Origin: Woeseiaceae bacterium
GTDB taxonomy: Bacteria > Pseudomonadota > Gammaproteobacteria > Steroidobacterales > Woeseiaceae
DNA length: 64,000 nucleotides
Direction: 5' to 3'
Assembly: GCA_028822065.1 (NCBI GenBank)
Contig: JAPKEL010000002.1
Location: forward strand, 21,741 to 85,740
Made by a program: the position numbers and the translations under genes
Shown here: piece after piece, positions 6,829 to 48,741 of the stretch
Layout of the letters: the number at the start of each line of letters is the position of its first letter
Numbering within the stretch: position 1 is the first letter of the stretch
The notes under the pieces: generated by a model
The model's database searches: none
What the model saw: the letters and a program-made list of their open reading frames with translations, nothing else
Told to the model about the DNA's origin: nothing

Positions 6829-8169
6829 CTAGCGTAATCGTTTATAAGTCATTCTTTTGCCAACAACGGCCCCAGTTAAAGAACTATTCTGATAAACAAT
6901 TGTACCATTGACAATTGTTGTATCTATAGATGTTTTAAAAGTATGACCTTCAAATGGTGACCAACCACATTTATAAATAATATTTTCTTTATTTACTTGA
7001 TAAGGTTTTTTCATATCGACCAAAACAAGGTCGGCATAATAGCCTTCTCTAATATACCCACGATCCTCAATACCAAATAAATCTGCAGGTGCATGACAAG
7101 CACGATCCACTACCAATTCATTACTTAGAACACCTTGATCAACTAAATCAAATAGCGCTGGAAGTGCATGTTGCACTAGAGGAATTCCTGCTGGTGCATC
7201 AAAGTAACCGGCGTGCTTTTCTTGACTTGTATGAGGCGCATGATCAGTAGCAATTACGTCAATTTTTCCTTCTTTTAATGCTTTTTGTAAGGCCAGTTTG
7301 TCAGCTTTGGATTTAATGGCTGGATTGCATTTTATAAATGTGCCATGTTCTGCATAATCACTTTCCTCAAACCAAAGATGGTGAACACAAACTTCTGCGG
7401 TAACTCTTTTTTCAGATCGATGTTTATTAGAAAAAAGAGCCATCTCTTTTTCTGTAGTTAAATGCAAAACATGCAATAAAGCATCGTATTTTTTTGCTAA
7501 TGCTATCGCAGAACTCGATGATTTGTAACATGCTAAATCTGAACGAATATGAGGATGTTGAGACATGGGAACATCTTCACCGTATTTTTCTTTCGCAACA
7601 GCTTCGTTACCCAATATGATGGGTGTGTCCTCACAATGCGTTACTACCATAATTGGCGCATATTCAAACAATAACTCCAAAGCCTTTGGATCATTAACCA
7701 ACATATTGCCTGTTGAAGCCCCCAAGAATGCTTTTATTCCACAAGCATCGTTGAGGTTCAATGATTTCACTACTTCTATATTCGTATTAGTTGCCCCCAA
7801 GTAAAACCCATAGTTAGTTCGACAACGATTTTTTGCTCTTAAATACTTATCATCAAGCGCATTTTTATTTGTTGTTTTTGGCTCAACGTTAGGCATTTCC
7901 ATGAAGCTGGTGATACCTCCAGCAACTGCTGCAGAAGACTCGGTCACTAAATCTGCTTTATGCGTTAAGCCAGGTTCACGACAATGAACTTGGTCATCTA
8001 TCATTCCCGGCATGAGATAACGGCCAGCAGCATCGAGTGAACAAACGTTATTATCGACTGAAATATTCGATGCAATTCTTTCGATTCTCTCTCCATCAAT
8101 CAAAATATCCGCATCAAAAGTATTTCCCTCGTTTATTATTTTTGCATTTCGGATTATTATCTTACTCAA
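6829..8169 (-). CDS. pyrC: Dihydroorotase-type cyclic amidohydrolase (long class I form)
   Basis: 446 aa. Motifs: DDQVHCREPGLTHK, GIKAFLG, VVTHCED, LHVLHLTT and ATDHAPH, matching the amidohydrolase metal and catalytic positions. The first metal motif reads Q-x-H rather than H-x-H. Confidence 0.75.
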   Translation of the reverse strand: MSKIIIRNAKIINEGNTFDADILIDGERIERIASNISVDNNVCSLDAAGRYLMPGMIDDQVHCREPGLTHKADLVTESSAAVAGGITSFMEMPNVEPKTTNKNALDDKYLRAKNRCRTNYGFYLGATNTNIEVVKSLNLNDACGIKAFLGASTGNMLVNDPKALELLFEYAPIMVVTHCEDTPIILGNEAVAKEKYGEDVPMSQHPHIRSDLACYKSSSSAIALAKKYDALLHVLHLTTEKEMALFSNKHRSEKRVTAEVCVHHLWFEESDYAEHGTFIKCNPAIKSKADKLALQKALKEGKIDVIATDHAPHTSQEKHAGYFDAPAGIPLVQHALPALFDLVDQGVLSNELVVDRACHAPADLFGIEDRGYIREGYYADLVLVDMKKPYQVNKENIIYKCGWSPFEGHTFKTSIDTTIVNGTIVYQNSSLTGAVVGKRMTYKRLR

Positions 8170-20488: not shown

Positions 20489-22939
20489 ATGCCTGAAATC
20501 ATTCTTGATTTATCTTGGTTACTGGCATTTTTATTTCTAGCCTTATATACGACTTACCAAAGAGTTAATCTGCTGTTTTCTACGATTGCCTTCTCAATTC
20601 TGATCTATTGCTATACTGTTTTTGGAGATGGAAGTTTTTTATGGGAATCTTTTCTTTGGGTTATACTTGGGACTCTGGTTACTCTTAATATTACCCCATT
20701 AAGACGCTCAAAGATTACGCGGCCATTGATGGATATTTACCGGAAAATGATCCCAAAAATGTCCAGCACTGAGAAGGAAGCTCTAGAAGCAGGAAATGTT
20801 TGGTGGGATGGTGAATTATTTTCTGGGATGCCAAACTGGGATGTGTTGATGTCCATGCCCAATCCAAAATTGTCTACAGAGGAACAAGCATTTCTGGATG
20901 GACCGTGCGATGAACTTTGCATGATGCTTGATGACTGGGAGATTTCGCATGAAACAGGAAATCTGCCAGAGAATGTTTGGGCTTTCATAAAAACTCATAA
21001 ATTTTTTGCCATGATCATACCCAAAGAATATGGTGGCCTAGAATTCTCATCCTATGCCAATGCCATGGTAATTACTAAATTAGCCAGTAGAAGCGCAGTT
21101 GCATCTTCGACTGTAGGTGTTCCCAATTCACTTGGACCCGCAGAACTCCTTATGCATTATGGTACTGACAAACAAAAACAACGTTATCTTCCAGGACTGG
21201 CCTCAGGAGATGAAATACCTTGCTTTGCCTTAACATCAACGGAAGCAGGATCGGATGCATCAGCTCTAATTGATTCTGGAGTTATTTGTAAAGGTCAGTG
21301 GAATAATAAAGAAATAATAGGTATTCGTTTGAACTGGGATAAAAGATATATAACACTTGCTCCAATTGCGACTGTTCTTGGTTTGGCTTTCAAGCTTTAT
21401 GATCCAGAGCATCTAATTGGTGATAAAGACGAATATGGAATCACAGCTGCATTGATTCCAACCGATACAGCTGGTGTTACTGTCGGTCGTCGTCACTACC
21501 CAATGCAAGTGCCATTTCAGAATGGGCCTACCAGTGGTGAGAATGTTTTTCTGCCGCTTGATTGTATTATCGGTGGCCAAAAAATGGCTGGTAAAGGCTG
21601 GAAAATGTTGGTTGAACTTTTGTCTGTGGGGCGAGCAATAACATTACCATCCAGTGGAGCTGGTGGTGGCCAAGCTGCCGCTTATGCTTCCGGTGCTTAC
21701 ACTCAAATTAGAAAACAATTTAATCTCCCAGTATCCCAATTTGATGGAATTAAGGAGGCGCTAGCTAGAATTGCAGGCAATACTTATATAATGAATGCAG
21801 CAATATCGATTACTTCAGGAGCAATCGATCAGGGCGAAAAACCTGCAGTGCCTTCTGCTATTCTAAAATATCACTGTACAGAATTAGCTCGTAAGGTTGC
21901 GAATGACGCCATGGATGTTCATGGCGGAAAAGCAGTAATGATGGGCCCAAAGAATTACATGGGTCGAGGTTTTATGGCCACACCAATAGCAATTACTGTT
22001 GAAGGCGCCAATATCCTAACGAGAAGTTTGATCATATTCGGACAAGGCGCGATCAGATGTCACCCATTTGTACTAAAAGAATTGCAAGCTGCTGAAGAGA
22101 AAGATACAACTTTGGGTCTTATAAATTTTGATAAAGCGTTATTTTCTCATATTGGCTACGCCATTAGTAACCTATCTAGGTCTTTTATCCTAGCAATAAC
22201 AAATGCCAGATACAGTAAAAGCCCTGTCAACACCAATACAAAACGCTACTATCAACACATTAATAGATACAGCGCTGCTTTTGCTGTGGCCTCAGATTTT
22301 GCGATGCTTTCATTGGGTGGAGAGCTAAAAAAGAAGGAATTACTCTCCGCAAGATTAGGTGATGTTTTAAGTTCGATATATCTTGCCTCAACGGTTCTTA
22401 AGCACTACGAAAATCAAGGATGTAAGCCTGAAGACTTGCCATTAGTTCAGTGGTCAGTAAGAACTCTAATGTATGAAGCACAAGAAAAACTGCATAATTT
22501 TCTAAAAAATCTACCGAACAAAGCGCTGGCTTTTTTCTTACGTTGTTATATCTTCCCGAGAGGTCGTGCTTACTCTCCTCCGCTCGATGAGTTAACAAAT
22601 AAAGTATCTAATATTATTACATCTAGTGGTGAGGCTCGAGAACGACTGAGTGAGTACGCATACACCACAATTGAACCTGGAAATCCTCTTGGTTTACTTC
22701 AAGAGGCTCTTGTATTATCAGAAAAAACAGCATTGATAGAAGCAAAACTTCGACAAGCAAGAAAAGATGGTTTAATAAAAAGTGATTATCTTGGGCATCA
22801 AATTGATGAAGCAGAAAAGCAAAAACTGCTAAATTCTATGGAAATACAACAACTCAAATTACTTCATGAAAAAGTATCTGAATTGTTATCGGTAGATGAT
22901 TTTGATCAAAGTGAAATTGGTCGTAACAAACAAGCATAA
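20489..22939 (+). CDS. fadE: Large membrane-associated acyl-CoA dehydrogenase
   Basis: 816 aa (E. coli FadE is 814 aa). N-terminal hydrophobic helices, an ACAD core (ALTSTEAGSDA, EGANILTRSLIIFGQG) and a long C-terminal extension. Confidence 0.9.
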   Translation: MPEIILDLSWLLAFLFLALYTTYQRVNLLFSTIAFSILIYCYTVFGDGSFLWESFLWVILGTLVTLNITPLRRSKITRPLMDIYRKMIPKMSSTEKEALEAGNVWWDGELFSGMPNWDVLMSMPNPKLSTEEQAFLDGPCDELCMMLDDWEISHETGNLPENVWAFIKTHKFFAMIIPKEYGGLEFSSYANAMVITKLASRSAVASSTVGVPNSLGPAELLMHYGTDKQKQRYLPGLASGDEIPCFALTSTEAGSDASALIDSGVICKGQWNNKEIIGIRLNWDKRYITLAPIATVLGLAFKLYDPEHLIGDKDEYGITAALIPTDTAGVTVGRRHYPMQVPFQNGPTSGENVFLPLDCIIGGQKMAGKGWKMLVELLSVGRAITLPSSGAGGGQAAAYASGAYTQIRKQFNLPVSQFDGIKEALARIAGNTYIMNAAISITSGAIDQGEKPAVPSAILKYHCTELARKVANDAMDVHGGKAVMMGPKNYMGRGFMATPIAITVEGANILTRSLIIFGQGAIRCHPFVLKELQAAEEKDTTLGLINFDKALFSHIGYAISNLSRSFILAITNARYSKSPVNTNTKRYYQHINRYSAAFAVASDFAMLSLGGELKKKELLSARLGDVLSSIYLASTVLKHYENQGCKPEDLPLVQWSVRTLMYEAQEKLHNFLKNLPNKALAFFLRCYIFPRGRAYSPPLDELTNKVSNIITSSGEARERLSEYAYTTIEPGNPLGLLQEALVLSEKTALIEAKLRQARKDGLIKSDYLGHQIDEAEKQKLLNSMEIQQLKLLHEKVSELLSVDDFDQSEIGRNKQA

Positions 22940-22971
22940 TAAAATATAGAAAAAACTGGAGGCAACCATTG

Positions 22972-23448
22972 ATGAACAAAAAATTTATAACTTTACTCTT
23001 GAGCATTCTGCTAGTTGCTGCATGCAATCAAAGCAATAAAAGCAATGAGATAAATGTAATCGAAGAACCTATTTATTCAGTCCCTTCGATTAAAAGAAAC
23101 CCTGCCCCAGAAGGTGCCTCTGTTTATTTTATAAATCCAGAGGCTAACGCCATCGTTTCCACCCCTGTAAAAGTTAAGTTTGGAGTTACAGGTATGGAGA
23201 TTGTTCCCTCAGGTCAAAATACCCCTCATACCGGCCATCATCATATTATAATAAATGCAGACCTTCCTGATATGAATTTCCCAATTCCGGCAGATGAAAA
23301 TTATGTTCATTTTGGTGATGGGAGGTCTGAAACTGAATTAAATCTTGCTCAAGGTGAGCACACGCTGCAATTGATTTTGGGTGATTATCTTCATGTCCCT
23401 CACTCTCCTCCAGTTTACTCAGAAAAAATCATTATCACAGTAGAATAA
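22972..23448 (+). CDS. Lipoprotein with a His-rich motif, DUF4399-like
   Basis: 158 aa from the ATG; the track starts one TTG codon earlier. Lipobox LLVAAC. The HTGHHHIIIN motif recalls DUF4399 proteins. That assignment is from memory and is unverified. Confidence 0.65.
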   Translation: MNKKFITLLLSILLVAACNQSNKSNEINVIEEPIYSVPSIKRNPAPEGASVYFINPEANAIVSTPVKVKFGVTGMEIVPSGQNTPHTGHHHIIINADLPDMNFPIPADENYVHFGDGRSETELNLAQGEHTLQLILGDYLHVPHSPPVYSEKIIITVE

Positions 23449-23484: not shown

Positions 23485-24969
23485 ATGAAAAAAAATCTTG
23501 ACATACCAATCGGAATAAGCGGTATTGCTGCCTATATTCCACCCTATAGAGTATGGCTAAATGATTGGTGTGAATGGACCGGTAATCAATGGCCAAAAAT
23601 AAGGGAAGTGGTTGGGCGTAGCTTTAGATTAAGAGGTAACCAGCATAGTGTTTATACGATGGCAGCTACGGCAGTAATTAGATTAATTGATCAATATGAT
23701 ATTGATCCAAATCGTGTAAAATTTCTTGCTTTAGGAACCGAATCGAGTACCGACAACTCAGCTGGTGCCATTATTATTAAAGGTATGATTAATGAGGCTC
23801 TTTTATCTCGAAACAAATCGCCAATTTCACGCAGTTGTGAGGTGCCTGAATTTAAGCATGCATGTTTAGGGGGTGTCTATGCCATGAAAGGTGCTATTAG
23901 ACACATAGCTTTAGATGGAGCGGGCGATCAAGCGATAGTAGTATGTGCAGATATTGCCGAATACCCCTTAGGAAGTAGCGGCGAACCAACACAAGGTGCT
24001 GGTGCCGTGGCAATGCTGGTTGAAGAAAATCCAAAACTTCTTGAAGTTGATATTATGAATTCTGGATCAGCATCTGATTATCGTATCCTAGATTTCAGAA
24101 AACCAATGATTCGTTTTTGCAGCCAAGAAAGGAAACTCAGCCAACAAGTTCAAGACTTTCCTATATTTAATGGTAAATATTCAACAACTTGCTACTTAGA
24201 TGAAACATTGCATGCTCTGGATGATATGTACAATAAAAGAAAACTTAATCCCATTAGCTATCTCCGTTCACTTAAAACTGTATTTATGCATAGACCTTAT
24301 CGAAAAATGCCAGAAACTGGGCTTGCCATCGCCTACCTATTTGCACTTTCTCGAGGTAATCCTGATGATCGAGCTGAACTTACATCCTATTGCTATGAAG
24401 CAGGAATAGATCCCATTAAAGTCATGCATGAGATGCAAGTATACACTCCGGATATAAAAGACTTAGCTAATCCAATCGATCTCAATAATGAAGCCTATCC
24501 GATGACAATGGCCATATTTCGTATATTTAGAGCCTCGAGACATTATCGTAGAGAAGTTTTAGATAAAATGGCTCTAGGTAGCGATACAATGCTAGATCTT
24601 GGTAATCTCTATACAGCTGCCTTGCCAGCCTGGATAGCAGCTGGATTAGAACAAGCACTCAAGGAAAATATAGATTTGACTGACAATGAAATACTCACCT
24701 TCGGATATGGTAGTGGTGATGCCGCTGAAGTGATTCCTTTTAAAGTTTGCAAGGAATGGAGAAACGCTGCAAAAAATATTCAATTTGCAGAAGCGATGTC
24801 ATTCACAATAGATCTCAATAAAGCGCAATATTTAGATCTTCATACCGGAAAATCTACCAATACATTGAGCTACGAACTAAAGAATGAATTTATTATCGAA
24901 CGTGTCGGAGATTCGGTAGAAAAAAATTATCAAGATATGGGTATCGAATATCATCGCTATATTAAATGA
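23485..24969 (+). CDS. mvaS: Hydroxymethylglutaryl-CoA synthase (long form)
   Basis: 494 aa. HMGS catalytic pattern: GTESSTD (Glu), EFKHACLGG (Cys), VFMHRPYRKM (His), GNLYTAALP and FGYGSG. Confidence 0.85.
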   Translation: MKKNLDIPIGISGIAAYIPPYRVWLNDWCEWTGNQWPKIREVVGRSFRLRGNQHSVYTMAATAVIRLIDQYDIDPNRVKFLALGTESSTDNSAGAIIIKGMINEALLSRNKSPISRSCEVPEFKHACLGGVYAMKGAIRHIALDGAGDQAIVVCADIAEYPLGSSGEPTQGAGAVAMLVEENPKLLEVDIMNSGSASDYRILDFRKPMIRFCSQERKLSQQVQDFPIFNGKYSTTCYLDETLHALDDMYNKRKLNPISYLRSLKTVFMHRPYRKMPETGLAIAYLFALSRGNPDDRAELTSYCYEAGIDPIKVMHEMQVYTPDIKDLANPIDLNNEAYPMTMAIFRIFRASRHYRREVLDKMALGSDTMLDLGNLYTAALPAWIAAGLEQALKENIDLTDNEILTFGYGSGDAAEVIPFKVCKEWRNAAKNIQFAEAMSFTIDLNKAQYLDLHTGKSTNTLSYELKNEFIIERVGDSVEKNYQDMGIEYHRYIK

Positions 24970-24980
24970 TTAGAAAAATT

Positions 24981-25550
24981 TTATAAAAAACTTTCCAATA
25001 ACTTCTTATGTTTCGACTTTAGTTGCTCCCACTCCATAATAAACCATGGTGTACAGACATTCCCTCTTTTTAATAACTTAGGTAAATCTTTTAAATTAAT
25101 AAATTTAAAATCAGCAATTTCATTGTTATTAATATTAATCTTTTGATCTACACTTCCCATGTAAACTGAACATAGTTCATTTTCAGATCCAATATCCTTA
25201 TACATAACAGCATAAGAAAATTTATAAACATACTGTAAATTCGATACGCTAATCCCCAATTCATCATGCAATCTTCTTGTGACTGCCTCCATCAAATTTT
25301 CGCCTTGCCTGGGATGACTGCAACAACTATTCGACCAAAATAAAGGCCATAATCTTTTTGATGCACTCCGCTGTTGTATGAGGAGCTCTCCTCGTGCGTT
25401 AAATAAAAATACTGAAAAAGCTCGATGCAGTCTACCGCCATCTTGATGGCAATCAAATTTGCTCATCGTACCGATTTTATTATCAGACGCATCAACAAGT
25501 ATTAAATCTTCATTATCAAATGAAACTATATAGTCATCTGATTTTTTCAT
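24981..25550 (-). CDS. idi: Isopentenyl-diphosphate delta-isomerase, type 1 (Nudix)
   Basis: 189 aa. LHRAFSVFLFN, WSNSCCSHPRQGE (catalytic Cys region) and RRLHDELG. Its start overlaps the stop of the upstream gene by 4 nt. Confidence 0.9.
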   Translation of the reverse strand: MKKSDDYIVSFDNEDLILVDASDNKIGTMSKFDCHQDGGRLHRAFSVFLFNARGELLIQQRSASKRLWPLFWSNSCCSHPRQGENLMEAVTRRLHDELGISVSNLQYVYKFSYAVMYKDIGSENELCSVYMGSVDQKININNNEIADFKFINLKDLPKLLKRGNVCTPWFIMEWEQLKSKHKKLLESFL

Positions 25551-27808
25551 TTATTTATACCACTGAGATGCGGTGCATGCATTGGGATAATTTTATAGCC
25601 AGCTAATTCAAAAATCTTTGCCATTTCTTTTTCTTTTCCTGGGCAAAGAATGATAATTGACCCTCCACCACCAGAACCAGTAATTTTAGCGCCTAATGCG
25701 CCTTCTGATCTAGCTAAATCTATCATTTCCTCAAGCTCAGCATTTGATACGCCAATAGCATTAAGTAATCCATGTGCTACATTCATTAAAATCCCAAGTT
25801 GTTCGTAATCATGATTTTGTATAGCGTTTAAACCTTTTTTTGATAATTTTCCTAGTTGCTTGAATATATCTTTATAGAGAATTTTATTATTTTCATACCT
25901 CAAATAAACTTCATTCACTATATCGATAGTCCTAGAGGATTTATTACTTAAAGCAATGAGGATGGGAAGTGATTTTATATCTTCAAAATTAAGATTTTTA
26001 ATACCTTCCTTTTTATTATAGAGGATGGGTTGGGCGTAAGAGGCAACCGTATTATCTATGCCAGATGGATTCCCATGGGATATTTTTTCGCATTCAAAAG
26101 CAATATCATTAATTTGTTTATTAGTTGATGGGAGTTTATATAAATCAATAAGCCCTCTTGTAATAGCAACTGCATATGACGCCGAGGCTCCTAAGCCCAT
26201 TGATAAAGGAATGCGAGAAACGATATTGATTTTAAAATTCACTCGATCAATATTTAATAAATTGCATATTTTTTCTACCATCAAAACCATATGAGCATAT
26301 TCAATAGAACATGGGTCAGAAATATTTATTGAACTACCATTAATAACAAAATGACAATCTTCGTCTATCTCTTGCACCTCAACATACACAGCTTCTTCAA
26401 TAGGGAGAGCTATTGCATATTCATTGTAAACGACGGCATGCTCCCCCAATAATATAATTTTTCCTGCAGAAACCCCTACTCCTAGATGCTTTGATTTATC
26501 TTTATTATTCATAAAGCCAGTCTCTGTCAGTTTTTTTGAAGCCAATATTTCTTGTGCTTTCCATGCTTTAATTTCACCGCTTGAAATCATATCATTCACA
26601 ACCTCTGTAAAATATTTCTCTGGAACATCAATACTCGTGGCTACACTTCTTGCGTGTAATTTCATATGACCTTTTTGTATTCCATGAGTCGTTAGAGCTC
26701 TCAATGCAGCTAGATTCTGAGCAAGTCCAACAGAAGCTATAATTATTGCTAATTCATTGGCAGAACTAGCATTTGCAATCTTTAACCCTATCTGAGCAGC
26801 TGGATTTGCCATCAATGAACCACCAACAATCCCAACTTTAATTGGTATTTTTAATTTACCTACCAAATTACCATCAGTATCAACAAGCCACTCAGTTAAT
26901 GATCGATATCTTCCATCATGACAAGCATAAGCATGGGCTGCTGACTCAATTGATCGCCAATCATTTCCCGTGGCAATCGCAACTGCATCAATGCCATTCA
27001 TAATACCTTTATTATGGGTAGCTGCACGATATGGGTCGGCATCTGCAAATTCTGTTGCATTTACTATGCTGTCACGAACTTGCAGCCCATTATAATCATC
27101 TTTAGCTAAATATTTGGGGGGTATTTTTACTTGAACATCAACGAGAGATCGATCAGTCAAATTAGATAATATCTTTAAACCAACTTTACACCCGGTCAAA
27201 TTTACTACATCATCCGCCAAGTATTCACAGACAGTATTTACTAGATTTGCTCCCATTGCATCTCTGGTATCGACCAAGATATGCAATACAATTACTTGCT
27301 CACTTTTTTGCTTTAATATATGAATCTCTATATCCCTGACACCACCACCTCTTTTTTTTAAATTCGGTTGCGATAAATTTGCGATAGTGATTAACATTTG
27401 CTTATTCTGCTCGAGAATATCAACAATTTTCGCTGCATCTTTAATATCAAGGAGTTGAATTTGTCCAATCAATAAAGATTGGTCAATTGAAGCGCTAAAT
27501 CCACCAGACATTCTAATAATTTTTGCAGCGCCACTAACGCCAGCAACTATGGAAGGCTCTTCTGTCACCATCGGAACTATATAATCTTGATTATTAATGA
27601 GAAAGTTAGTCGCAATTGAGAAAGGTAACCCAAAAACGCCTATGACATTTTCACTCATATTATCTGCAATATCCGCAGAGAGAATCTGACTCTCTGACTT
27701 AAGAAGCTTAGTTTCTGCTGGAGTGAGCAAGCCGAGATTAGATAATGCTTCAACTCTCTCGGCAACAGTCATTTTATAAAAGCCGCTAATATTCGAATTA
27801 GTCATCAT
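25547..27808 (-). CDS. Bifunctional class II HMG-CoA reductase (N-terminal) / mevalonate kinase (C-terminal) fusion protein
   Basis: 753-aa uninterrupted ORF. Residues 1-425 carry SENVIGVFGLP, VTEEPSIVAG, DAMGANLVNT, NKGIMNGIDAVAIATGNDWR and GHMKLHAR (class II HMGR). Residues 443-753 carry GKIILLGEHAVVY, PLSMGLGASASYAVA and GAKITGSGGGGS (GHMP kinase motifs I-III, mevalonate kinase type). Confidence 0.88.
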   Translation of the reverse strand: MMTNSNISGFYKMTVAERVEALSNLGLLTPAETKLLKSESQILSADIADNMSENVIGVFGLPFSIATNFLINNQDYIVPMVTEEPSIVAGVSGAAKIIRMSGGFSASIDQSLLIGQIQLLDIKDAAKIVDILEQNKQMLITIANLSQPNLKKRGGGVRDIEIHILKQKSEQVIVLHILVDTRDAMGANLVNTVCEYLADDVVNLTGCKVGLKILSNLTDRSLVDVQVKIPPKYLAKDDYNGLQVRDSIVNATEFADADPYRAATHNKGIMNGIDAVAIATGNDWRSIESAAHAYACHDGRYRSLTEWLVDTDGNLVGKLKIPIKVGIVGGSLMANPAAQIGLKIANASSANELAIIIASVGLAQNLAALRALTTHGIQKGHMKLHARSVATSIDVPEKYFTEVVNDMISSGEIKAWKAQEILASKKLTETGFMNNKDKSKHLGVGVSAGKIILLGEHAVVYNEYAIALPIEEAVYVEVQEIDEDCHFVINGSSINISDPCSIEYAHMVLMVEKICNLLNIDRVNFKINIVSRIPLSMGLGASASYAVAITRGLIDLYKLPSTNKQINDIAFECEKISHGNPSGIDNTVASYAQPILYNKKEGIKNLNFEDIKSLPILIALSNKSSRTIDIVNEVYLRYENNKILYKDIFKQLGKLSKKGLNAIQNHDYEQLGILMNVAHGLLNAIGVSNAELEEMIDLARSEGALGAKITGSGGGGSIIILCPGKEKEMAKIFELAGYKIIPMHAPHLSGINK

Positions 27809-28803
27809 TAAACCTCTAGAGTCAAACCTGCTTTATCTAATTGCAAGTTCAACGATACAAATCCATTCTGATTGGCTGATTTTTCAAAATCATCCAATAA
27901 TCTAACAGATGAAGCGATGCAAATACCAATATCTCCGCCTGCACCACAAGGTTTATAAACTAAGTTGCTCTCCTTTTTTGCCAAATCTACCAATATATTA
28001 TGCTTGTGCCCAAAAATATTTAAATCATACTCCATACTAAACTCCATTAAAGCATCTGTATATTCATCAAGATATTTCAAAAAGAGCTGATTATTTTGAT
28101 CCCAGTTTGAAGCAAATTTAACTGCCATTTTTTTTAAATCCAAGAAACTTTTTTTTGAAAATCCTTTTACTTTAGTTAATTGTCTAGGTGTACTAACAGG
28201 AGTACCACTCCAAAAAATCCTAAATTTTAAATCGTGCGGAAACTCCAAAGAAGAGAGCGCCTTATTTTCCTTACGAAAATATTTAATAATTCCACCTTCT
28301 AAAGAAGTAGCAATATCCACGCCACTCCCATTGACACCTTGAAACTCTCGATGCACCTTTAATGCCAACTCTTTTACTCCAAATGACAATTTAAAGGTCT
28401 TGATAAATGCACTAGCTAACGCAACTGTGAGTGCTGCACTGGATCCGATTCCGTATTTGAGCTTAGTTTCTTTTTCATAAAAACCAGTGGTATCTAAAAT
28501 AAATTCATAATGAAATGAAGGGCAAATATTTACTTCCTGCCACATACACTCAAAAAATATTCTAATGGAGTCGCTTGACTTACCTAAAAGCCACTCTATT
28601 TTTCCATTATTGTTAACAACAAATGGCAATTGCTTGTCCATGAAACCTAAAGTTTTCAATATATGTGTTTTCTTGTCATGCTCTTGTATCGAAACATTCG
28701 CTCTTTTATCAATAGCCATTGAAATTGCAGGAGCGTCTGTCAAAACTGCAAATTCTCCGGCAATTATTATTTTACCCGGCGCACTTACCTTAATAGCCTT
28801 CAT
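27808..28803 (-). CDS. mvaK2: Phosphomevalonate kinase (GHMP family)
   Basis: 331 aa. Motifs: SAPGKIIIAGEFAVL, YGIGSSAALTVALA and KPCGAGGDIGI. There is a 1-nt TAATG overlap with the downstream fusion gene. Confidence 0.85.
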   Translation of the reverse strand: MKAIKVSAPGKIIIAGEFAVLTDAPAISMAIDKRANVSIQEHDKKTHILKTLGFMDKQLPFVVNNNGKIEWLLGKSSDSIRIFFECMWQEVNICPSFHYEFILDTTGFYEKETKLKYGIGSSAALTVALASAFIKTFKLSFGVKELALKVHREFQGVNGSGVDIATSLEGGIIKYFRKENKALSSLEFPHDLKFRIFWSGTPVSTPRQLTKVKGFSKKSFLDLKKMAVKFASNWDQNNQLFLKYLDEYTDALMEFSMEYDLNIFGHKHNILVDLAKKESNLVYKPCGAGGDIGICIASSVRLLDDFEKSANQNGFVSLNLQLDKAGLTLEV

Positions 28804-29774
28804 AAACTGATATCCGAACTAGGGGCTCCACCTAATCCTGATTTCATGATAGAAACGACACCATCTATTTCAGCTAGTCTCTTCTCGATTCGAGCTTCGT
28901 TTTCAGGAAGACAAACCGCCTTTATCTGAGGACCTGCATCCATCGTAAAGAAAACAGATTCGCCACTTTGTTGCAAATCACGAAGGGCATGCATGCAATT
29001 AAGCGTCGCTGCATTCCAGTAAACGACAGATGGTTTAGTAGTCCACATAACCGAATGCATCTTCAAACAATTATGCTCAGAGACTGCCGCCAATTTCTCA
29101 AAATCCTTATTTATCACTGCTAGCCTTGCCTCTTTCATATCAGGCGACTGATTTTCAATCCACGCTGAGTAGAAAGGAGAAGAACGGGAGCTTAAATTCA
29201 TGGCCCGTGAAGAAGAAATACTTTTTTTATTCTTATCAGTGATTGCAATCACAACACTTAATGGCCATCGCTTTGCTTTTGATAATTGCTTTATCTTAAT
29301 AGTATTCGATGTATTTGTAAGTTCAACAATACCACCCATTAAAGATCTTGCTGCAGAACCTGAAATGCTGCCTGCTTGAGCAGCAAATAATTGTATGTCT
29401 GATTTTTTATTAATGGCCATATTTGCAGCAACAACTAATGCTGAAAATGAGGAGGAAGAAGATGCCAGGCCAGCTGATATTGGAAAATTACATTCACTTT
29501 CGATCCTAGCAAAGTCGCGGTTTTTCCCAACAACAAGATCTAAACATTGACTGACACGTGATAAATTTGGCTCATCTTTAACACCATTTATAAGCAGCTC
29601 ATCTCGATTGAAATTAGAGGAAAAACCGACCTTCATATTCGTCCATAAACCACCTAATGTGAGGGACAAGGAATCAACAGCAGGTAAATTTTTTACTGCA
29701 TCTCTCTTACCCCAATATTTGATCAATGCAATATTAGGATGTGATTGAGCTATTGCTTGCATAAAATTATCCAT
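28800..29774 (-). CDS. mvaD: Diphosphomevalonate decarboxylase
   Basis: 324 aa. Motifs: HPNIALIKYWGKRD, SAGLASSSSSFSALV and FFTMDAGPQ. There is a 4-nt overlap with the PMK start. Confidence 0.9.
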   Translation of the reverse strand: MDNFMQAIAQSHPNIALIKYWGKRDAVKNLPAVDSLSLTLGGLWTNMKVGFSSNFNRDELLINGVKDEPNLSRVSQCLDLVVGKNRDFARIESECNFPISAGLASSSSSFSALVVAANMAINKKSDIQLFAAQAGSISGSAARSLMGGIVELTNTSNTIKIKQLSKAKRWPLSVVIAITDKNKKSISSSRAMNLSSRSSPFYSAWIENQSPDMKEARLAVINKDFEKLAAVSEHNCLKMHSVMWTTKPSVVYWNAATLNCMHALRDLQQSGESVFFTMDAGPQIKAVCLPENEARIEKRLAEIDGVVSIMKSGLGGAPSSDISL

Positions 29775-29901
29775 TATTTAAAAATTGCACTGTAAATAAA
29801 TTATACGTGTATTTTAATGCAACTATTTGTGTCATTTTATATCGATATTGTGTTTATATATCCCCTTAACAATATTATTACATCTTACTCAGAGACTTAA
29901 T

Positions 29902-30789
29902 ATGTCAATGAATGCGCCTAACGCAATTAAAAACTATAAAAAACGCATTAATTCACTATTAGATGAAGCACTACCTTTATCTAATAATCTTTCCACATTA
30001 AATGATGCAATGCGTTACGCTGTCATAAATGGTGGTAAGCGTATTCGACCACTTCTCATCTACGGCTCCGGAATGTGCCTAGACATTCAAATAAATAAAC
30101 TTGATATTCCAGCAATTTCAATTGAACTTTTGCATGCATTTTCCCTGGTTCACGATGATCTCCCATCGATGGATAACGATGATTTAAGAAGAGGATTACC
30201 CACTACACACAAAAAATTCTCTGAAGCTACAGCTATTCTTGCGGCAGATGCTCTTCAAATCCTCGCATTTGAAATAATAGCTAACTCTAGACCCTTGAGT
30301 GATCACGAAAAAACTAAGCTAATTTTATTAATTGCAAAAGCTTGCGGATCATCAGGCATGACGGGTGGCCAATCAATTGATTTGGCTTCTGAAGGAAAAA
30401 CTCTAAATAAGTCAGAATTACATGAAATGCATGCAATGAAAACGGGAGCATTAATACACGCCTCTATTATGGCGCCCTTTTATTTGATGGACACCTCCAA
30501 GCATGACACCCAAAAAACAATGAGTGAATATGGATGGACATTGGGACTTGCCTTCCAAATCCGTGATGATTTGCTAGATATCGAAGAAACAACCGAAGTA
30601 ATAGGAAAAACAGCCAACTCAGATATTAAAAATAATAAAGCCACCTGGCCATCACTTTTCGGAGTCAAGGAATCTCATAAGTATTGCGATGAATTATTAG
30701 CGAAATGCTTAGATCATCTAGAGATTTTTAATCATAAAGCTGATCCACTAAGATGGCTCACTAATTACCTAATAAACAGACAGCATTAA
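29902..30789 (+). CDS. ispA: Farnesyl diphosphate synthase ((2E,6E)-FPP synthase)
   Basis: Start moved to the ATG at 29902 (MSMNAPNAIKNYKK...). The track ORF starts at a TTG 25 codons upstream in hydrophobic, non-homologous sequence. FARM motif LVHDDLPSMDNDDLRRG and SARM motif FQIRDDLLD. Confidence 0.9.
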   Translation: MSMNAPNAIKNYKKRINSLLDEALPLSNNLSTLNDAMRYAVINGGKRIRPLLIYGSGMCLDIQINKLDIPAISIELLHAFSLVHDDLPSMDNDDLRRGLPTTHKKFSEATAILAADALQILAFEIIANSRPLSDHEKTKLILLIAKACGSSGMTGGQSIDLASEGKTLNKSELHEMHAMKTGALIHASIMAPFYLMDTSKHDTQKTMSEYGWTLGLAFQIRDDLLDIEETTEVIGKTANSDIKNNKATWPSLFGVKESHKYCDELLAKCLDHLEIFNHKADPLRWLTNYLINRQH

Positions 30790-45997: not shown

Positions 45998-47194
45998 TTA
46001 AAATGGTGCCGGAGGAGTAGCGCCTCGTCTTGGTGGAAACCAAAAAGGTTTATCAACTACAGTTGCTTTTGCCATCACACGATTCCAATGCATTTCTCGT
46101 TGATAATAAACCTCAACCCAAACATTATCACCCGGTTTTCCATAAGGTGTACGTACTGTCCCAAGGGCAATATTTTGTTTACAGATAGGTGACCACGTTG
46201 CCGATGTAATAAAACCAATTTCTTCTGAATTATTTTTTTCTTGAGAGTAAATAAATGAATGGTCCGCAGTTTTATTACCTTCAATATCTAATTTAACTAA
46301 ACGCCAGTTTGAGCCTTCAGCTTTTTCCTTTAAGAGTGCTCTACGTCCATTAAAATTATCTTTATTAAAATCTACTAGCCATTCCATTCCAATTTCAAGC
46401 GGTGATCGAGTTCTGCCTGTTCTTACTGTGGTCTCTGCAGGCAAAAAATCTTCGAATGGTGCAAGATAGCCAGCCTCTTTTCGAGCAAGGTCTAATGCGT
46501 GCGTGCCAATAGCTTTAATACCATGTAATTTTCCTGCTTCAAACAAGGCATCCCAGAGATCTATAGCCTTATCTGGATCAATCCATAATTCATAACCAAG
46601 ATCACCGGTAAAACCTGTTCTGGATATCATCAGCTCCGTGTCAAAAATTTGATGGTGCATTAAGCCAAATGGTTTTAAGGCATCAAGACCATCTATCGCC
46701 ATATTCTTTAGCACGCTATAAGATGTTGGACCCTGCACTGCAAGTGCTGCTATTTCAACAGTTTCCTCTTTTATGGAAACATCAAATCCAATCGCAGCTG
46801 TTGTTAGCCATGCAAAGTGTCTTTCTTGTGAGCACAATCTATATTCGCCCTCACGCAAATGAAATATTGTGCCATCATCTATCACTTGCCCTTGATCATC
46901 ACACCAAATTGCATAAGCAACTCGTCCAGGCTTAATTTTTCTCATATCACGAGTAACGAGTCGATTAAGATAATCAAGCGCATCTGGTCCTGTGATACGG
47001 TATTTTGTCATGGGTGTTATATCGAATACACCCGTGGAATTTCTAATTGCAAAGTATTCCATATCTTCACAATAAAGAGCTTCGGGGCTGGAATAACCAG
47101 CCCAATTATGCCAAGTATTCAAGCAATCGAGTTCAGCTAAACGAGGATAAAAAGGAGTGCGTAATCTACCTGTATTTATTTTTACTGGAGTCAT
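45998..47194 (-). CDS. Aminomethyltransferase (GcvT) family folate-binding protein; substrate unknown
   Basis: 398 aa. RTPFYPR, EYFAIRNSTGVFDITPMTKYRITGPDA, AVQGP and ISRTGFTGDLGYELW are GcvT-fold patterns. There is a 1-nt overlap with the upstream gene. Confidence 0.82.
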   Translation of the reverse strand: MTPVKINTGRLRTPFYPRLAELDCLNTWHNWAGYSSPEALYCEDMEYFAIRNSTGVFDITPMTKYRITGPDALDYLNRLVTRDMRKIKPGRVAYAIWCDDQGQVIDDGTIFHLREGEYRLCSQERHFAWLTTAAIGFDVSIKEETVEIAALAVQGPTSYSVLKNMAIDGLDALKPFGLMHHQIFDTELMISRTGFTGDLGYELWIDPDKAIDLWDALFEAGKLHGIKAIGTHALDLARKEAGYLAPFEDFLPAETTVRTGRTRSPLEIGMEWLVDFNKDNFNGRRALLKEKAEGSNWRLVKLDIEGNKTADHSFIYSQEKNNSEEIGFITSATWSPICKQNIALGTVRTPYGKPGDNVWVEVYYQREMHWNRVMAKATVVDKPFWFPPRRGATPPAPF

Positions 47195-48741
47195 TATTTA
47201 TTCCCCTTCTTTAAAATTACCTGTGCAGCATTTCTCCCTGAGGCCCCGCTAATTCCTCCGCCAGGGTGTGAGCCTGCTCCGCACAAATACAGCCCATCGA
47301 TTGGCATCTGATACTGCGCCGAACCAGCCACAGGCCTAACAAACATAAACTGATCCAGAGTAAACTCACCATGATGCCAATGCCCACCGGTGATATGAAA
47401 CTCATTCTCCAGATCGACGGGCGTCAATAATTCCATAGCATGGATACAGCTTTCAATATCCGGCATATATTGCTTCAACACATTATAAATGGCGTTTTTA
47501 AAATTATTGCGCGCCTCTTCATTCCAGTCCGATTTGTGCTTATAAGGAGCATACTGAACAATTGCTGACATCACATGGCCGCCCGAGGGAGCCAAACTAT
47601 CATCATTAACACTAGGAAACGTAATTTCCATTATAGGTTGTGGAGAACTTTTCCTATATTTTGCTGGGTTAAACGCTTTTTCCACATAACTTTCATCTGG
47701 AGCAATTAGTATACGTTGACCATAATCAGCATCTGAGAAGCCTTTGATTGTGGGTAATTTATTTAGGGCAATATGCAGTTTTGCGGCATTTCCCTTCATG
47801 CGGATATTATCAACTCTGTGCGTGAATCGTGTCTCCACGTTGCGAGCTCCCACTAGTTCTAACATTGTTTTTTTAGGATCTGCATTTGAAACTACGATCT
47901 CACTGTTATAAACAGTACCATCGTTTAATTCAACACCTGTAGCGGCGCCTTTGGCTAATAATACTTTTTTTACTTGAGCATTTGTTTTAATTTCTACACC
48001 AGCAGCTTCTGCACAATCACTTAGAGCTTTTGAGACACTTCCCATTCCACCTTCGGGGAGAGAGATTTCTCCATGCTTACCAGCCATTCTATACAAATAG
48101 GTTAAAATGGTATTAGGTGATCGAGGTCCGAGATGTGTACCCAATACTGAATCTAAACTGAGACCACCTTTTAATAAAGGATTCTCGAAACGCTCATCCA
48201 ATTCATCATAGATATTCATACCTATTAGTCTTAAGAATTCACGCATTTCAACCTGACCCATTCTTCGAAGATCAAAACCAAGCATGGCAAGAGTGAATAA
48301 ATCTTTTTTATTTTTTGTGCCTAATCTTGGCGGGGCTTTATTCAGGTAGGGTTTTAATAAATCTGCAAACTTAGTCATTCGTTTAGTGAATTCTTCGAAG
48401 TTTTTTTGATCACTGTCATTGACACCCGTAACCTTACTTCCACAATAACTAACATGCTCACTGCCTTTTGATAAAACAATAGTCGACATATTTTTGCTTG
48501 CAAGCTTGAGATTTAAATTCAAATCTTTTTCAACTTGAGGTTGCAATTGATAAAGCAAATGGGCACAAGCCGATGCAGAATAACCTTCAGCAAATTCTCT
48601 AGTAATAGCTGCTCCACCAACTTGGTTATTTGCCTCCAAAACCAAGACTTTTTTCCCTGCTTTTGCCAGTAAAGCAGAACACACAAGACCATTGTGTCCT
48701 GCACCTATAACTATCGCATCGTATTTATCAATCATCGCCAA
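47194..48741 (-). CDS. CrtI/phytoene-desaturase-family FAD-dependent oxidoreductase (paralogue B)
   Basis: 515 aa. N-terminal YDAIVIGAGHNGLVCS dinucleotide fold. C-terminal GLYLCGAGSHPGGGISGASGRNAA. It overlaps paralogue A by 14 nt, or by 8 nt if the start is the ATG at 48735. Confidence 0.85.
   Translation of the reverse strand: MAMIDKYDAIVIGAGHNGLVCSALLAKAGKKVLVLEANNQVGGAAITREFAEGYSASACAHLLYQLQPQVEKDLNLNLKLASKNMSTIVLSKGSEHVSYCGSKVTGVNDSDQKNFEEFTKRMTKFADLLKPYLNKAPPRLGTKNKKDLFTLAMLGFDLRRMGQVEMREFLRLIGMNIYDELDERFENPLLKGGLSLDSVLGTHLGPRSPNTILTYLYRMAGKHGEISLPEGGMGSVSKALSDCAEAAGVEIKTNAQVKKVLLAKGAATGVELNDGTVYNSEIVVSNADPKKTMLELVGARNVETRFTHRVDNIRMKGNAAKLHIALNKLPTIKGFSDADYGQRILIAPDESYVEKAFNPAKYRKSSPQPIMEITFPSVNDDSLAPSGGHVMSAIVQYAPYKHKSDWNEEARNNFKNAIYNVLKQYMPDIESCIHAMELLTPVDLENEFHITGGHWHHGEFTLDQFMFVRPVAGSAQYQMPIDGLYLCGAGSHPGGGISGASGRNAAQVILKKGNK

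Follow-up and report, generated by a model that had tools for sequence, protein, structure and literature searches.

Does the long open reading frame (ORF) in this 64-kb window (the whole stretch of DNA analysed, 64,000 nucleotides) encode one protein for two successive mevalonate-pathway reactions, and if so, what might be gained by joining them? We propose, at a probability of about 0.85, that it does: a single polypeptide, a class II HMG-CoA reductase (HMGR) continued by a mevalonate kinase (MVK), is predicted to perform both steps in a biosynthetic operon setting. The parts of the frame are as follows.

25547-27808, minus strand: putative bifunctional HMGR/MVK, whole ORF, 753 residues plus stop, no interruption
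26522-27808, minus strand: class II HMGR domain, residues 1-429, including a C-terminal three-helix flap
26483-26521, minus strand: flexible inter-domain linker, residues 430-442 (TGFMNNKDKSKHL), placed by AlphaFold pLDDT and by its variability in relatives
25550-26482, minus strand: MVK (GHMP) domain, residues 443-753, placed by profile and structure matches

The initial annotation had described one uninterrupted 753-codon ORF joining class II HMGR to MVK, and both the frame and the family cut-offs agree with it. Pfam HMG-CoA_red (PF00368) covers residues 15-386 (E 9e-105, profile positions 2-368 of 368) and the NCBIfam model TIGR00532 scores 383.9 bits over residues 2-386 (cut-off 259.95), while the NCBIfam class I HMGR models reach 43 and 41.5 bits, far under their cut-offs. 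In the second half Pfam places GHMP_kinases_N at residues 511-591 and GHMP_kinases_C at 662-726, and the NCBIfam equivalog for mevalonate kinase, TIGR00549, scores 247.1 bits over residues 448-721 (cut-off 163.05), with the other GHMP models of NCBIfam (galactokinase, homoserine kinase, phosphomevalonate kinase) all far under cut-off. The Pfam gathering scores are exceeded by both halves as well. The motifs that had been quoted, and Met433, were each found at the residues claimed for them: ENVIG (53-57), EEPSIVAG (83-90), DAMGAN (183-188), NKGIMNGIDAV (266-276), GNDWR (281-285) and GHMKLHAR (380-387) in the reductase, and GHMP motif I GKIILLGEHAVVY (449-461), motif II PLSMGLGASAS (534-544) and motif III KITGSGGGG (708-716) in the kinase. 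Aligned to Pseudomonas mevalonii HMGR (1qax), the catalytic residues E84, K267, D283 and H381 correspond to its E83, K267, D283 and H381 and are invariant in 57 fusion proteins. Equally invariant in these 57 are motif III and the key MVK residues, namely K450 (motif I), E456, H457, S542 (motif II), E574 and D585 (in the block 574-586) and the glycine loop at 711-716; the catalytic Lys and Asp are the equivalents of rat K13 and D204. By these alignments both halves are complete and every predicted catalytic residue is kept. The AlphaFold model of the fusion (mean pLDDT 86.7, pTM 0.60) has two well-folded domains, of which the N-terminal half superposes on P. mevalonii HMGR structures with a TM of 0.88-0.92 and the MVK half on the MVK structures of M. 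mazei, L. major and S. pneumoniae with a target-normalised TM of 0.77-0.86 (Foldseek).

Could the two genes have been joined by an assembly or sequencing error, with a stop codon lost or a frameshift introduced between adjacent mvaA and mvk? Elsewhere, HMGR and MVK genes are indeed found side by side without being fused. As in the fusion, HMGR is directly followed by MVK in Virgibacillus, Oceanobacillus and Paucisalibacillus and in one Archangium MAG (the best tblastn segment has 47-49% identity in the Bacillaceae and 40% in Archangium), but here they are two ORFs, overlapping in different frames in four Bacillaceae genomes and separated in the Archangium MAG by a single in-frame TGA with GTG codons closely after it. 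In the HMGR tree described below these unfused pairs fall outside the main cluster of fused sequences, and they show how a single mutation could switch between the fused and unfused states. For the window protein, an artefact has next to no credence. Records of the identical 753-residue protein exist on 13 contigs; 8 of these, from separate sample accessions, were read, and in them the gene differs from that of the window by 0-4 bases, all of them at third codon positions and all synonymous. In addition, 41 species genomes, two of them from cultured Cryobacterium isolates, have the gene as a single ORF, and the fused protein is found in at least 119 clusters. With one and the same protein on independent contigs, the artefact reading is rejected as effectively refuted.

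The junction between the domains is shorter than had been thought. Flap helices are predicted by AlphaFold at residues 377-392, 397-410 and 415-429, and since the last HMGR helix thus reaches residue 429 in the model, the unstructured stretch is about 13 residues (430-442) and not the roughly 17 originally given; residues 431-439 have a pLDDT below 50 and are predicted to be disordered. Across relatives the linker varies in both sequence and length (19-50 residues between conserved anchors), and its columns are 10% identical, those of the HMGR half 60% and those of the MVK half 53%. Within it lies the codon from which a separate kinase had been suggested to start.

26510-26512, minus strand: in-frame ATG, codon 433, proposed internal start, for which no support was found

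Under that suggestion the gene would have two products, the full-length protein and a free MVK begun at codon 433. The ATG lies 10 codons ahead of the kinase domain, and Shine-Dalgarno (SD) sequences are on the whole weakly used in this genome (mean -2.7 kcal/mol at ORF starts), so that the missing strong SD at codon 433 need not preclude initiation. However, Met433 occurs in the window protein alone among 46 aligned sequences, the closest relatives (76% and 72% identical) being without it, and of 104 relatives just 26 show a Met anywhere in the linker. The anti-SD pairing upstream (-2.9 kcal/mol) is ordinary, being equalled or beaten at 38% of random gene positions and bettered by several other internal ATGs of the same gene, and a promoter-like site upstream on the minus strand was looked for and none was found. 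An internal start is therefore quite improbable, and we drop it from the description of this gene.

The genes around the fusion bear directly on its role.

28800-29774, minus strand: diphosphomevalonate decarboxylase (MDD), first operon gene (TIGR01240 244.7 bits, cut-off 171; Pfam MVD-like_N and MDD_C)
27808-28803, minus strand: a divergent GHMP kinase, probably phosphomevalonate kinase (PMK) (Pfam GHMP_kinases_N)
24981-25550, minus strand: type 1 isopentenyl-diphosphate isomerase (IDI, NUDIX) (NF002995 177 bits, cut-off 127)
23485-24969, plus strand: a divergent HMG-CoA synthase (HMGS), 494 residues, convergent with the operon (Pfam HMG_CoA_synt_N and HMG_CoA_synt_C)
29827-30789, plus strand: farnesyl-diphosphate synthase (FPPS), divergent from the operon (NF045485 317.7 bits, cut-off 275)

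The stop codon of the PMK-like gene overlaps the fusion start codon (TAATG) and the IDI start overlaps the fusion stop by 4 bases; the fusion gene would come third in an operon with translational coupling, MDD-PMK-[HMGR-MVK]-IDI, in an uncultured marine Woeseiaceae-like gammaproteobacterium. The neighbourhood is that of a mevalonate-pathway operon. For the PMK-like kinase the top NCBIfam match is Pmev_kin_Gr_pos (78.5 bits, under its cut-off) and the best solved structure 3k17, Lin0012 (E 7e-12), and a homologue occupies the same position in related cassettes. The HMGS ORF matches solved HMGS structures at E 4e-29, stays under the NCBIfam cut-offs, and has a homologue in about 11 related fusion-carrying loci, usually downstream and convergent. 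The FPPS start is placed by gene callers near 29902-29908, giving 293-295 residues in identical contigs. The MDD-PMK-[HMGR-MVK] core is present in 29 of 41 single-ORF loci and is followed by IDI in 22; the conserved cassette is thus MDD-PMK-[HMGR-MVK]-IDI, with FPPS and HMGS nearby. Searches of the operon for internal signals gave nothing meaningful (21 promoter-like sites, where 24.6 would be expected, and within IDI a single weak terminator-like site), nor was there a notable compositional anomaly that might mark recent transfer (GC 0.35-0.36 in the operon, 0.33-0.41 across the window). No tRNA genes were found within the 64-kb window that might have anchored its taxonomy, and PolA served in their place: it shows 83% and 75% identity to proteins labelled Woeseiaceae by NCBI, and its close relatives, at 74-99% identity, have Tara Oceans records. 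A carotenoid cluster as a downstream sink was considered and set aside, the two CrtI-family ORFs (47194-50347) being far under the family cut-offs and lying amid unrelated catabolic genes.

In which direction, then, does the reductase run? Its best NCBIfam model, TIGR00532, is named 'HMG_CoA_R_NAD, degradative', its closest solved structure is that of the catabolic P. mevalonii enzyme, and the source names of family members are just 'HMG-CoA reductase', often tagged 'degradative', all in keeping with a reductase half that oxidises mevalonate to HMG-CoA as in P. mevalonii. We nevertheless hold this to be highly improbable. The HMGR is joined to a kinase that consumes mevalonate, its gene is flanked by those for PMK, MDD, IDI, HMGS and FPPS, and an HMG-CoA lyase family was matched by none of the 8 neighbouring ORFs scanned with Pfam. 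The cofactor site also differs: the position of P. mevalonii Asp146 is Gln147 in the window protein and is never Asp in the 57 fusion proteins, and Arg153 is invariant among them, giving a 'KKRGGG' that resembles the 'VKRGGG' of S. pneumoniae and is unlike the 'D..L..LGGGC' of P. mevalonii, D. acidovorans, B. cenocepacia and 9v7y (four other aligned solved enzymes). In the published enzymology Asp146 goes with NADH and KRGGG-type motifs with NADPH, the cofactor of the S. pneumoniae enzyme; the window protein has another residue in place of the Asp typical of the NADH-using solved enzymes, and going by these few aligned positions its reductase half probably prefers NADPH. Also against degradation, Woeseia is scored as MEV-only, that is, as a genus relying on the mevalonate pathway alone (Table S1, PMC13001223). 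From gene context and cofactor-site residues we infer that the role of the fusion is biosynthetic, despite its database name.

The initial annotation had implied that such a fusion is rare; it is in fact widespread and not a one-off oddity. We defined the family as proteins with HMG-CoA_red followed by GHMP_kinases_N and GHMP_kinases_C in one ORF of about 735-780 residues, aligned over their full length, and the window protein falls within it. At least 119 full-length clusters at 90% identity carry the three domains, those listed aligning over 97-99% of the query at 47-76% identity. Among the best 149 representatives at 50% identity, 26 have the HMGR-then-MVK order, as against 1 with the reverse. 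The gene is a single ORF in 41 of 46 fusion-length genome loci, and these 41 are species-representative genomes that span six phyla going by record titles and include cultured Cryobacterium. Other architectures built on class II HMGR have this N-terminal domain too, at 39-47% identity, and the databases contain the following.

HMGR-MVK-IDI triple fusions (P0121, P0122)
MVK-HMGR, in reversed order (P0137)
GHMP-HMGR (P0147)
HMGR joined to squalene/phytoene synthase, polyprenyl synthase, an SHC-like domain or an epimerase

The pairwise identities of the HMGR and MVK halves are closely correlated (r = 0.88, a value reached in 0 of 999 Mantel permutations), and the sequences indicate that the two halves co-evolve and that purifying selection acts on them as a unit. 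When the HMGR domains were placed in a neighbour-joining tree, with no bootstrap, 45 of 50 fused sequences lie on one side of a single split, the window protein among them beside a Woeseiaceae MAG, and five divergent fused sequences lie outside this main cluster. In this rough tree the family appears to form mostly one cluster. Strict monophyly was set aside, as the five outliers and the reversed-order protein may have had origins of their own.

How does the fusion compare with known systems? Like MvaE of Enterococcus faecalis, it is a natural bifunctional bacterial protein of the mevalonate pathway built on a class II HMGR domain, and the E. faecalis HMGR domain structures 7m1z and 7m3h match its N-terminal half at E 4e-87. 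In MvaE the partner is an acetoacetyl-CoA thiolase, N-terminal to HMGR, and the pathway has HMG-CoA synthase between these two activities, which are therefore not consecutive. In contrast, the partner in the window protein is a GHMP kinase, placed C-terminal to the HMGR flap, and the steps are consecutive; its HMGR begins at residue 1 and Pfam finds no thiolase domain, and it is therefore analogous to MvaE and not a member of its family. To P. mevalonii HMGR the N-terminal half aligns over residues 3-421 of 428 (E 1e-108, approximately 44-47% identity), sharing the catalytic Glu, Lys, Asp and His and the flap domain. The P. mevalonii enzyme, a stand-alone, NADH-dependent, catabolic protein of 428 residues, differs from the window protein in the latter's Gln at the Asp146 position, KKRGGG motif, fused kinase and biosynthetic neighbourhood. 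The MVK half has the GHMP motifs and catalytic residues of the stand-alone kinases of L. major (2hfs), S. aureus (2x7i) and S. pneumoniae (2oi2), which it matches at E 1e-30 to 1e-35 and about 30% identity, and it aligns to archaeal MVK structures too. Those kinases are separate polypeptides of approximately 290-330 residues, whereas the MVK of the fusion is without a conserved start codon of its own and co-evolves with the HMGR half.

What might the joining of the two enzymes achieve? The N-terminal class II HMGR would reduce HMG-CoA to mevalonate at the cost of two NAD(P)H, and the C-terminal GHMP-family kinase would convert this mevalonate to mevalonate-5-phosphate with ATP, the two being joined by a predicted disordered tether of about 13 residues that runs from the end of the mobile C-terminal HMGR flap into the first kinase strand. 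The ATP-driven phosphorylation would pull the reversible reductase reaction forward. Most likely, the gain from fusion is fixed 1:1 co-expression and co-localisation, with phosphorylation pulling the reductase. A more ambitious option is that the protein is a channelling and allosteric machine: as HMGR and MVK are each dimeric, joining them could produce a closed assembly of higher order, where mevalonate passes straight to the kinase site and kinase feedback is relayed through the flap, such that inhibition of the kinase by downstream prenyl or diphosphomevalonate metabolites could gate flap closure. In its favour, the short tether hangs the kinase directly off the mobile catalytic flap that bears His381, the HMGR-then-MVK order outnumbers its reverse 26 to 1 among representatives, the family persists over genomes of six phyla by record titles, and HMGR-MVK-IDI triple fusions exist. 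Against it, the linker varies in length and sequence as a passive tether would, mevalonate is small and freely diffusible with no charge but its carboxylate, and most organisms manage with unfused enzymes. AlphaFold also shows no confident inter-domain packing, and with a pTM of 0.60 and no defined inter-domain interface, channelling is without structural support; the inter-domain arrangement of the model was itself discarded, given this pTM and the disordered linker. Such a machine we regard as unlikely, and true substrate channelling in the fusion, like the co-regulation named beside it in the initial annotation, as possible but unsupported. If real, a channelling particle would let bacteria control the rate-limiting reductase step directly by allostery.

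The initial annotation knew of no characterised HMGR-MVK fusion. No chain among the solved-structure sequences searched spans both the HMGR and MVK halves, and a full-text literature search, with most subscription journals outside it, found no paper on a natural HMGR-MVK fusion. In Hoshino and Gaucher 2018 (PMC6107057), 'fused' appears only for the trimming of unrelated sequences, and of fusions a 2026 J Bacteriol review (PMC13001223) has IspDF only. Hence, of the annotation's own counter-case, a fusion both common and already characterised, the first part holds and the second does not, no characterisation having been found.

Thus, the HMGR-MVK fusion is a real, conserved form of bifunctional enzyme that is common yet biochemically uncharacterised. 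Its interest is modest: each domain is an unremarkable representative of a well-studied family, proteins that join neighbouring pathway enzymes occur often, and nothing is overturned. What is documented is a large natural HMGR-MVK family, along with HMGR-MVK-IDI triples, whose second activity has apparently never been named and whose protein has apparently never been purified. Annotation by name only hides the kinase in carrier genomes, and the 'degradative' tag is misleading. The family also indicates that the flap domain of class II HMGR tolerates a large C-terminal cargo. Metabolic engineers have tried to imitate such coupling by synthetic scaffolds and fusions. Cultured Cryobacterium strains are among the carriers and experiments are therefore feasible, and the family is a naturally occurring system in which substrate channelling and stoichiometric coupling could be tested at the flux-controlling step of the mevalonate pathway.

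We propose, from its sequence, that this fusion of a class II HMG-CoA reductase (HMGR) to a mevalonate kinase (MVK) is a bifunctional enzyme of the mevalonate pathway; its architecture is abundant in sequence databases. The initial annotation had described an uninterrupted 753-codon frame, an observation that is correct as written, and the motifs it quoted all lie at the residue numbers it assigned to them, with Met at codon 433. The reading frame and its Pfam-A domains are as follows:

25547..27808, minus strand: HMGR-MVK fusion, a single 753-aa ORF with no stop inside the translation
fusion residues 15-386: HMG-CoA_red (E 9e-105)
fusion residues 511-591: GHMP_kinases_N
fusion residues 662-726: GHMP_kinases_C

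Both halves score above NCBIfam equivalog cut-offs, with 383.9 bits for TIGR00532 (class II HMG-CoA reductase; cut-off 259.95) and 247.1 bits for TIGR00549 (mevalonate kinase; cut-off 163.05), while the remaining NCBIfam models for GHMP proteins and those for class I reductases all fall far under theirs. An artefact of sequencing or assembly where the domains meet, for which a stop or frameshift between them would have been the sign, is excluded by the recording of the exact 753-aa sequence on 13 contigs and by the purely synonymous differences in the eight that were read (an NCBI assembly, an ENA assembly, and Logan assemblies of six sequencing runs). In these eight the frame is intact, and the gene differs from that of the window at 0-4 bases, all at third codon positions, leaving the protein unchanged.

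Taken singly, the two halves are ordinary members of their families. The HMGR half aligns with residues 3-421 of the 428 in Pseudomonas mevalonii HMGR (1qax; E 1e-108), includes the C-terminal flap domain, and has aligned counterparts of the catalytic E83, K267, D283, and H381. Alignments of the MVK half to the kinases of Leishmania major and Staphylococcus aureus and to MKbur (8teb) run from end to end, and the half shares with all three the motif I Lys, the motif II Ser, the E...HG.PSG.D block, and the Gly-rich motif III. An AlphaFold2 model built on an alignment of 57 family members (mean pLDDT 86.7) contains two well-folded domains, with the final reductase helix running to residue 429, the first kinase strand starting at 443, and linker residues 431-439 having pLDDT <50; since the pTM is 0.60, the model does not predict how the two domains are placed relative to each other. 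In Foldseek searches against the PDB, PmHMGR structures reached target-normalised TM-scores of 0.88-0.92 and MVK structures 0.77-0.86, all matches listed being stand-alone HMGR or MVK with no fused chain, and a sequence search of solved structures likewise returned no chain matching both halves. The product is thus one polypeptide with two complete, conserved catalytic domains on a flexible tether.

In which direction might the reductase work? It is joined to a mevalonate-consuming kinase and has biosynthetic genes around it; the 'degradative' in the name of its family model is carried over from the P. mevalonii enzyme. Asp146 (P. mevalonii numbering) discriminates against NADPH. The enzymes of P. 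mevalonii, Burkholderia cenocepacia, and Delftia acidovorans use NADH; that of Streptococcus pneumoniae uses NADPH. In our alignment, the cofactor region reads D..L..LGGGC in the first three and in the solved enzyme 9v7y, Y.S.VKRGGGA in S. pneumoniae, and Q.N.KKRGGGV in the window protein. In 57 fusion proteins the Asp146 equivalent is Gln in 39 and Leu in 13 and never Asp, and the Arg does not vary. Based on this motif comparison and the known cofactor enzymology, the fusion reductase probably works in the biosynthetic direction and either prefers NADPH or uses both cofactors.

The initial annotation had implied that the fusion is rare, a notion that the architecture search overturned with at least 119 full-length proteins and 41 single-ORF genome loci. 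In a word-indexed protein search, HMG-CoA_red was present in all 120 matches listed, and at least 119 proteins of 733-780 aa carried it together with both GHMP domains (97-99% of the query aligned, 47-76% identity), a figure that is a lower bound as full-length fusions were still appearing at the last match listed. An exhaustive search of 50%-identity representatives found the HMGR-then-MVK order in 26 of the best 149 matches and the reverse order in one. In species-representative genomes, 46 loci match the query over both halves, 41 of them as a single ORF. By their record titles, which for metagenome-assembled genomes (MAGs) can be wrong, the single-ORF loci belong to Pseudomonadota (Woeseiaceae, Rhodanobacteraceae, Dokdonella, Chiayiivirga, Salinisphaera, Pseudomonadales MAGs, and a Rhodospirillaceae MAG), Acidobacteriota, Calditrichota, Balneolota, Myxococcota, and Actinomycetota (a Nakamurella MAG and two Cryobacterium species in culture, C. 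psychrotolerans CGMCC 1.5382 at locus L042 and C. levicorallinum Hh34 at locus L039, the latter two being isolates and free of this caveat). The source names seen for the ~745-aa fusion proteins are all 'hydroxymethylglutaryl-CoA reductase', often with 'degradative' added, and none of them (NOX70121.1, MDA0678876.1, MDA0992131.1, and JGI entries) mentions the kinase half.

The two halves appear to have evolved as a unit. Their catalytic residues are invariant in 57 fusion proteins, and the pairwise identities of one half track those of the other (r = 0.88, with none of 999 Mantel permutations as high). The HMGR half averages 60% identity, the MVK half 53%, and the linker columns 10%, with 19-50 residues (median 26) between the conserved anchors WKAxxE and GKxILxGEH. 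A neighbour-joining tree, computed from 178 HMGR domains and without support values, places 45 of the 50 fused sequences on one side of a single split, together with six other sequences of which three are truncated fusions; outside this main cluster lie the reversed-order protein and five divergent fusions. The pattern suggests that the fusion arose mainly once and that the cassette then spread, with perhaps a few additional events. The core order of diphosphomevalonate decarboxylase (MDD), phosphomevalonate kinase (PMK), and fusion is found again in 29 of the 41 loci with a single ORF, with IPP isomerase (IDI) next in 22; farnesyl-diphosphate synthase (FPPS) is divergent upstream in nine, and HMG-CoA synthase (HMGS) is present in eleven, mostly convergent downstream. 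In four Bacillaceae genomes (loci L063, L071, L075, and L078, from Virgibacillus, Paucisalibacillus, and Oceanobacillus isolates), HMGR and MVK are neighbouring genes that overlap in different frames, in the order HMGR-MVK-MDD-PMK, unlike the MDD-PMK-[HMGR-MVK]-IDI of the fusion cassette. In an Archangium gephyra MAG (locus L038), the two are in frame with a lone TGA between them (7300-7302) and GTG codons 3-9 bases downstream, so that this is either a fusion that has been split or a stop that is recent or erroneous. A single mutation separates the unfused from the fused state.

What might the fusion do? It would set a 1:1 ratio of the two activities and co-localise them. The reaction of class II reductases is reversible, so that a kinase driven by ATP would draw flux in the forward direction. 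HMGR and MVK might also channel mevalonate directly or influence each other allosterically; the variability of the linker, together with an inter-domain geometry that is not predicted, speaks against a fixed interface. The kinase is joined to the end of the mobile flap carrying His381, so flap closure must tolerate a cargo of ~34 kDa, and that it does so is shown by the variety of other partners that class II reductases carry at the C-terminus. A second product, a separate MVK translated from the in-frame ATG at codon 433, had also been suggested, and nothing supports it. Met433 occurs only in the window's protein in a 46-sequence alignment, being absent from relatives at 76% and 72% identity, and only 26 of 104 relatives carry a Met anywhere in the linker. 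Anti-Shine-Dalgarno pairing in the 20 bases upstream is -2.9 kcal/mol, against -6.5 at the true start, a value equalled or bettered by 38% of random gene positions and by several other internal ATGs. No promoter-like site lies upstream of codon 433 on the same strand, nor are such sites enriched in the region.

The fusion gene is part of a translationally coupled biosynthetic operon of four tightly packed minus-strand genes, with stops overlapping the next starts. The other features are:

28800-29774, minus strand: MDD, first in operon order
27808-28803, minus strand: divergent GHMP kinase, best read as PMK, below every NCBIfam GHMP cut-off
24981-25550, minus strand: type 1 IDI, its start overlapping the fusion stop by 4 bases (25547-25550)
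29827-30789, plus strand: FPPS, upstream of the operon and transcribed divergently
23485-24969, plus strand: divergent HMGS (494 aa), downstream and converging on the operon
22969-23448, plus strand: DUF4399 protein, just upstream of HMGS
20489-22939, plus strand: acyl-CoA dehydrogenase with ACDH_C domain (816 aa), near HMGS and upstream
47194-50347, minus strand: two tandem CrtI-family flavoproteins (CrtO-like), well under family cut-offs

The presumed PMK has Pmev_kin_Gr_pos as its best NCBIfam match (78.5 bits; cut-off 165.7) and the Listeria Lin0012 protein (3k17; E 7e-12) as its closest solved relative; such divergent PMKs could escape pathway-completeness surveys. The HMGS is unusually long and below NCBIfam cut-offs. 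Solved structures match only its residues 9 to ~284 and the Pfam C-terminal domain picks up at 371-445, a gap suggesting an insertion of ~90-130 residues. The mechanical ORFs start at a TTG at 29827 (FPPS) and an ATG at 29774 (MDD); as gene calls in identical contigs are shorter (293-295 aa and 320 aa, respectively), the divergent intergenic region is ~140 bp rather than 52 bp. Identical contigs also share the arrangement of DUF4399, acyl-CoA dehydrogenase, and HMGS genes. The CrtI-family pair, surrounded by aminomethyltransferase, aminotransferase, acyl-CoA dehydrogenase, and Rieske oxygenase genes, is probably not a pair of carotenoid genes.

Literature and solved-structure searches found no paper or structure describing an HMGR-MVK fusion. 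Among characterised enzymes, the nearest parallel is the thiolase-HMGR fusion MvaE of enterococci. The present protein has no thiolase domain, carries its partner at the opposite end, and joins consecutive steps, and so falls outside the MvaE family. Judging by domain architectures, class II HMGR readily forms fusions with diverse partners. The representative search also returned HMGR-MVK-NUDIX (type 1 IPP isomerase) triple fusions, P0121 (928 aa) and P0122 (952 aa), which extend the window's order of overlapping fusion and IDI genes. Among P0137, P0147, P0150, P0156, P0165, and P0170 are reversed MVK-HMGR, GHMP-HMGR, HMGR-squalene-hopene-cyclase-like, HMGR-epimerase, HMGR-SQS/PSY-epimerase, and HMGR-polyprenyl synthase-SQS/PSY architectures.

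The operon's GC content is like that of the rest of the window. The window's DNA polymerase I is 83% and 75% identical to proteins labelled Woeseiaceae bacterium by NCBI, and its close relatives (74-99% identity) have Tara Oceans records, which makes the host an uncultured marine Woeseiaceae-like gammaproteobacterium. Table S1 of a 2026 review (PMC13001223) scores Woeseia with the mevalonate pathway only. While an HMGR-MVK fusion would come as no surprise to a specialist, it offers a natural test case for coupling at a flux-controlling step and a part for pathway engineering; if the host behaves like Woeseia, the fusion would be part of its sole route to IPP.
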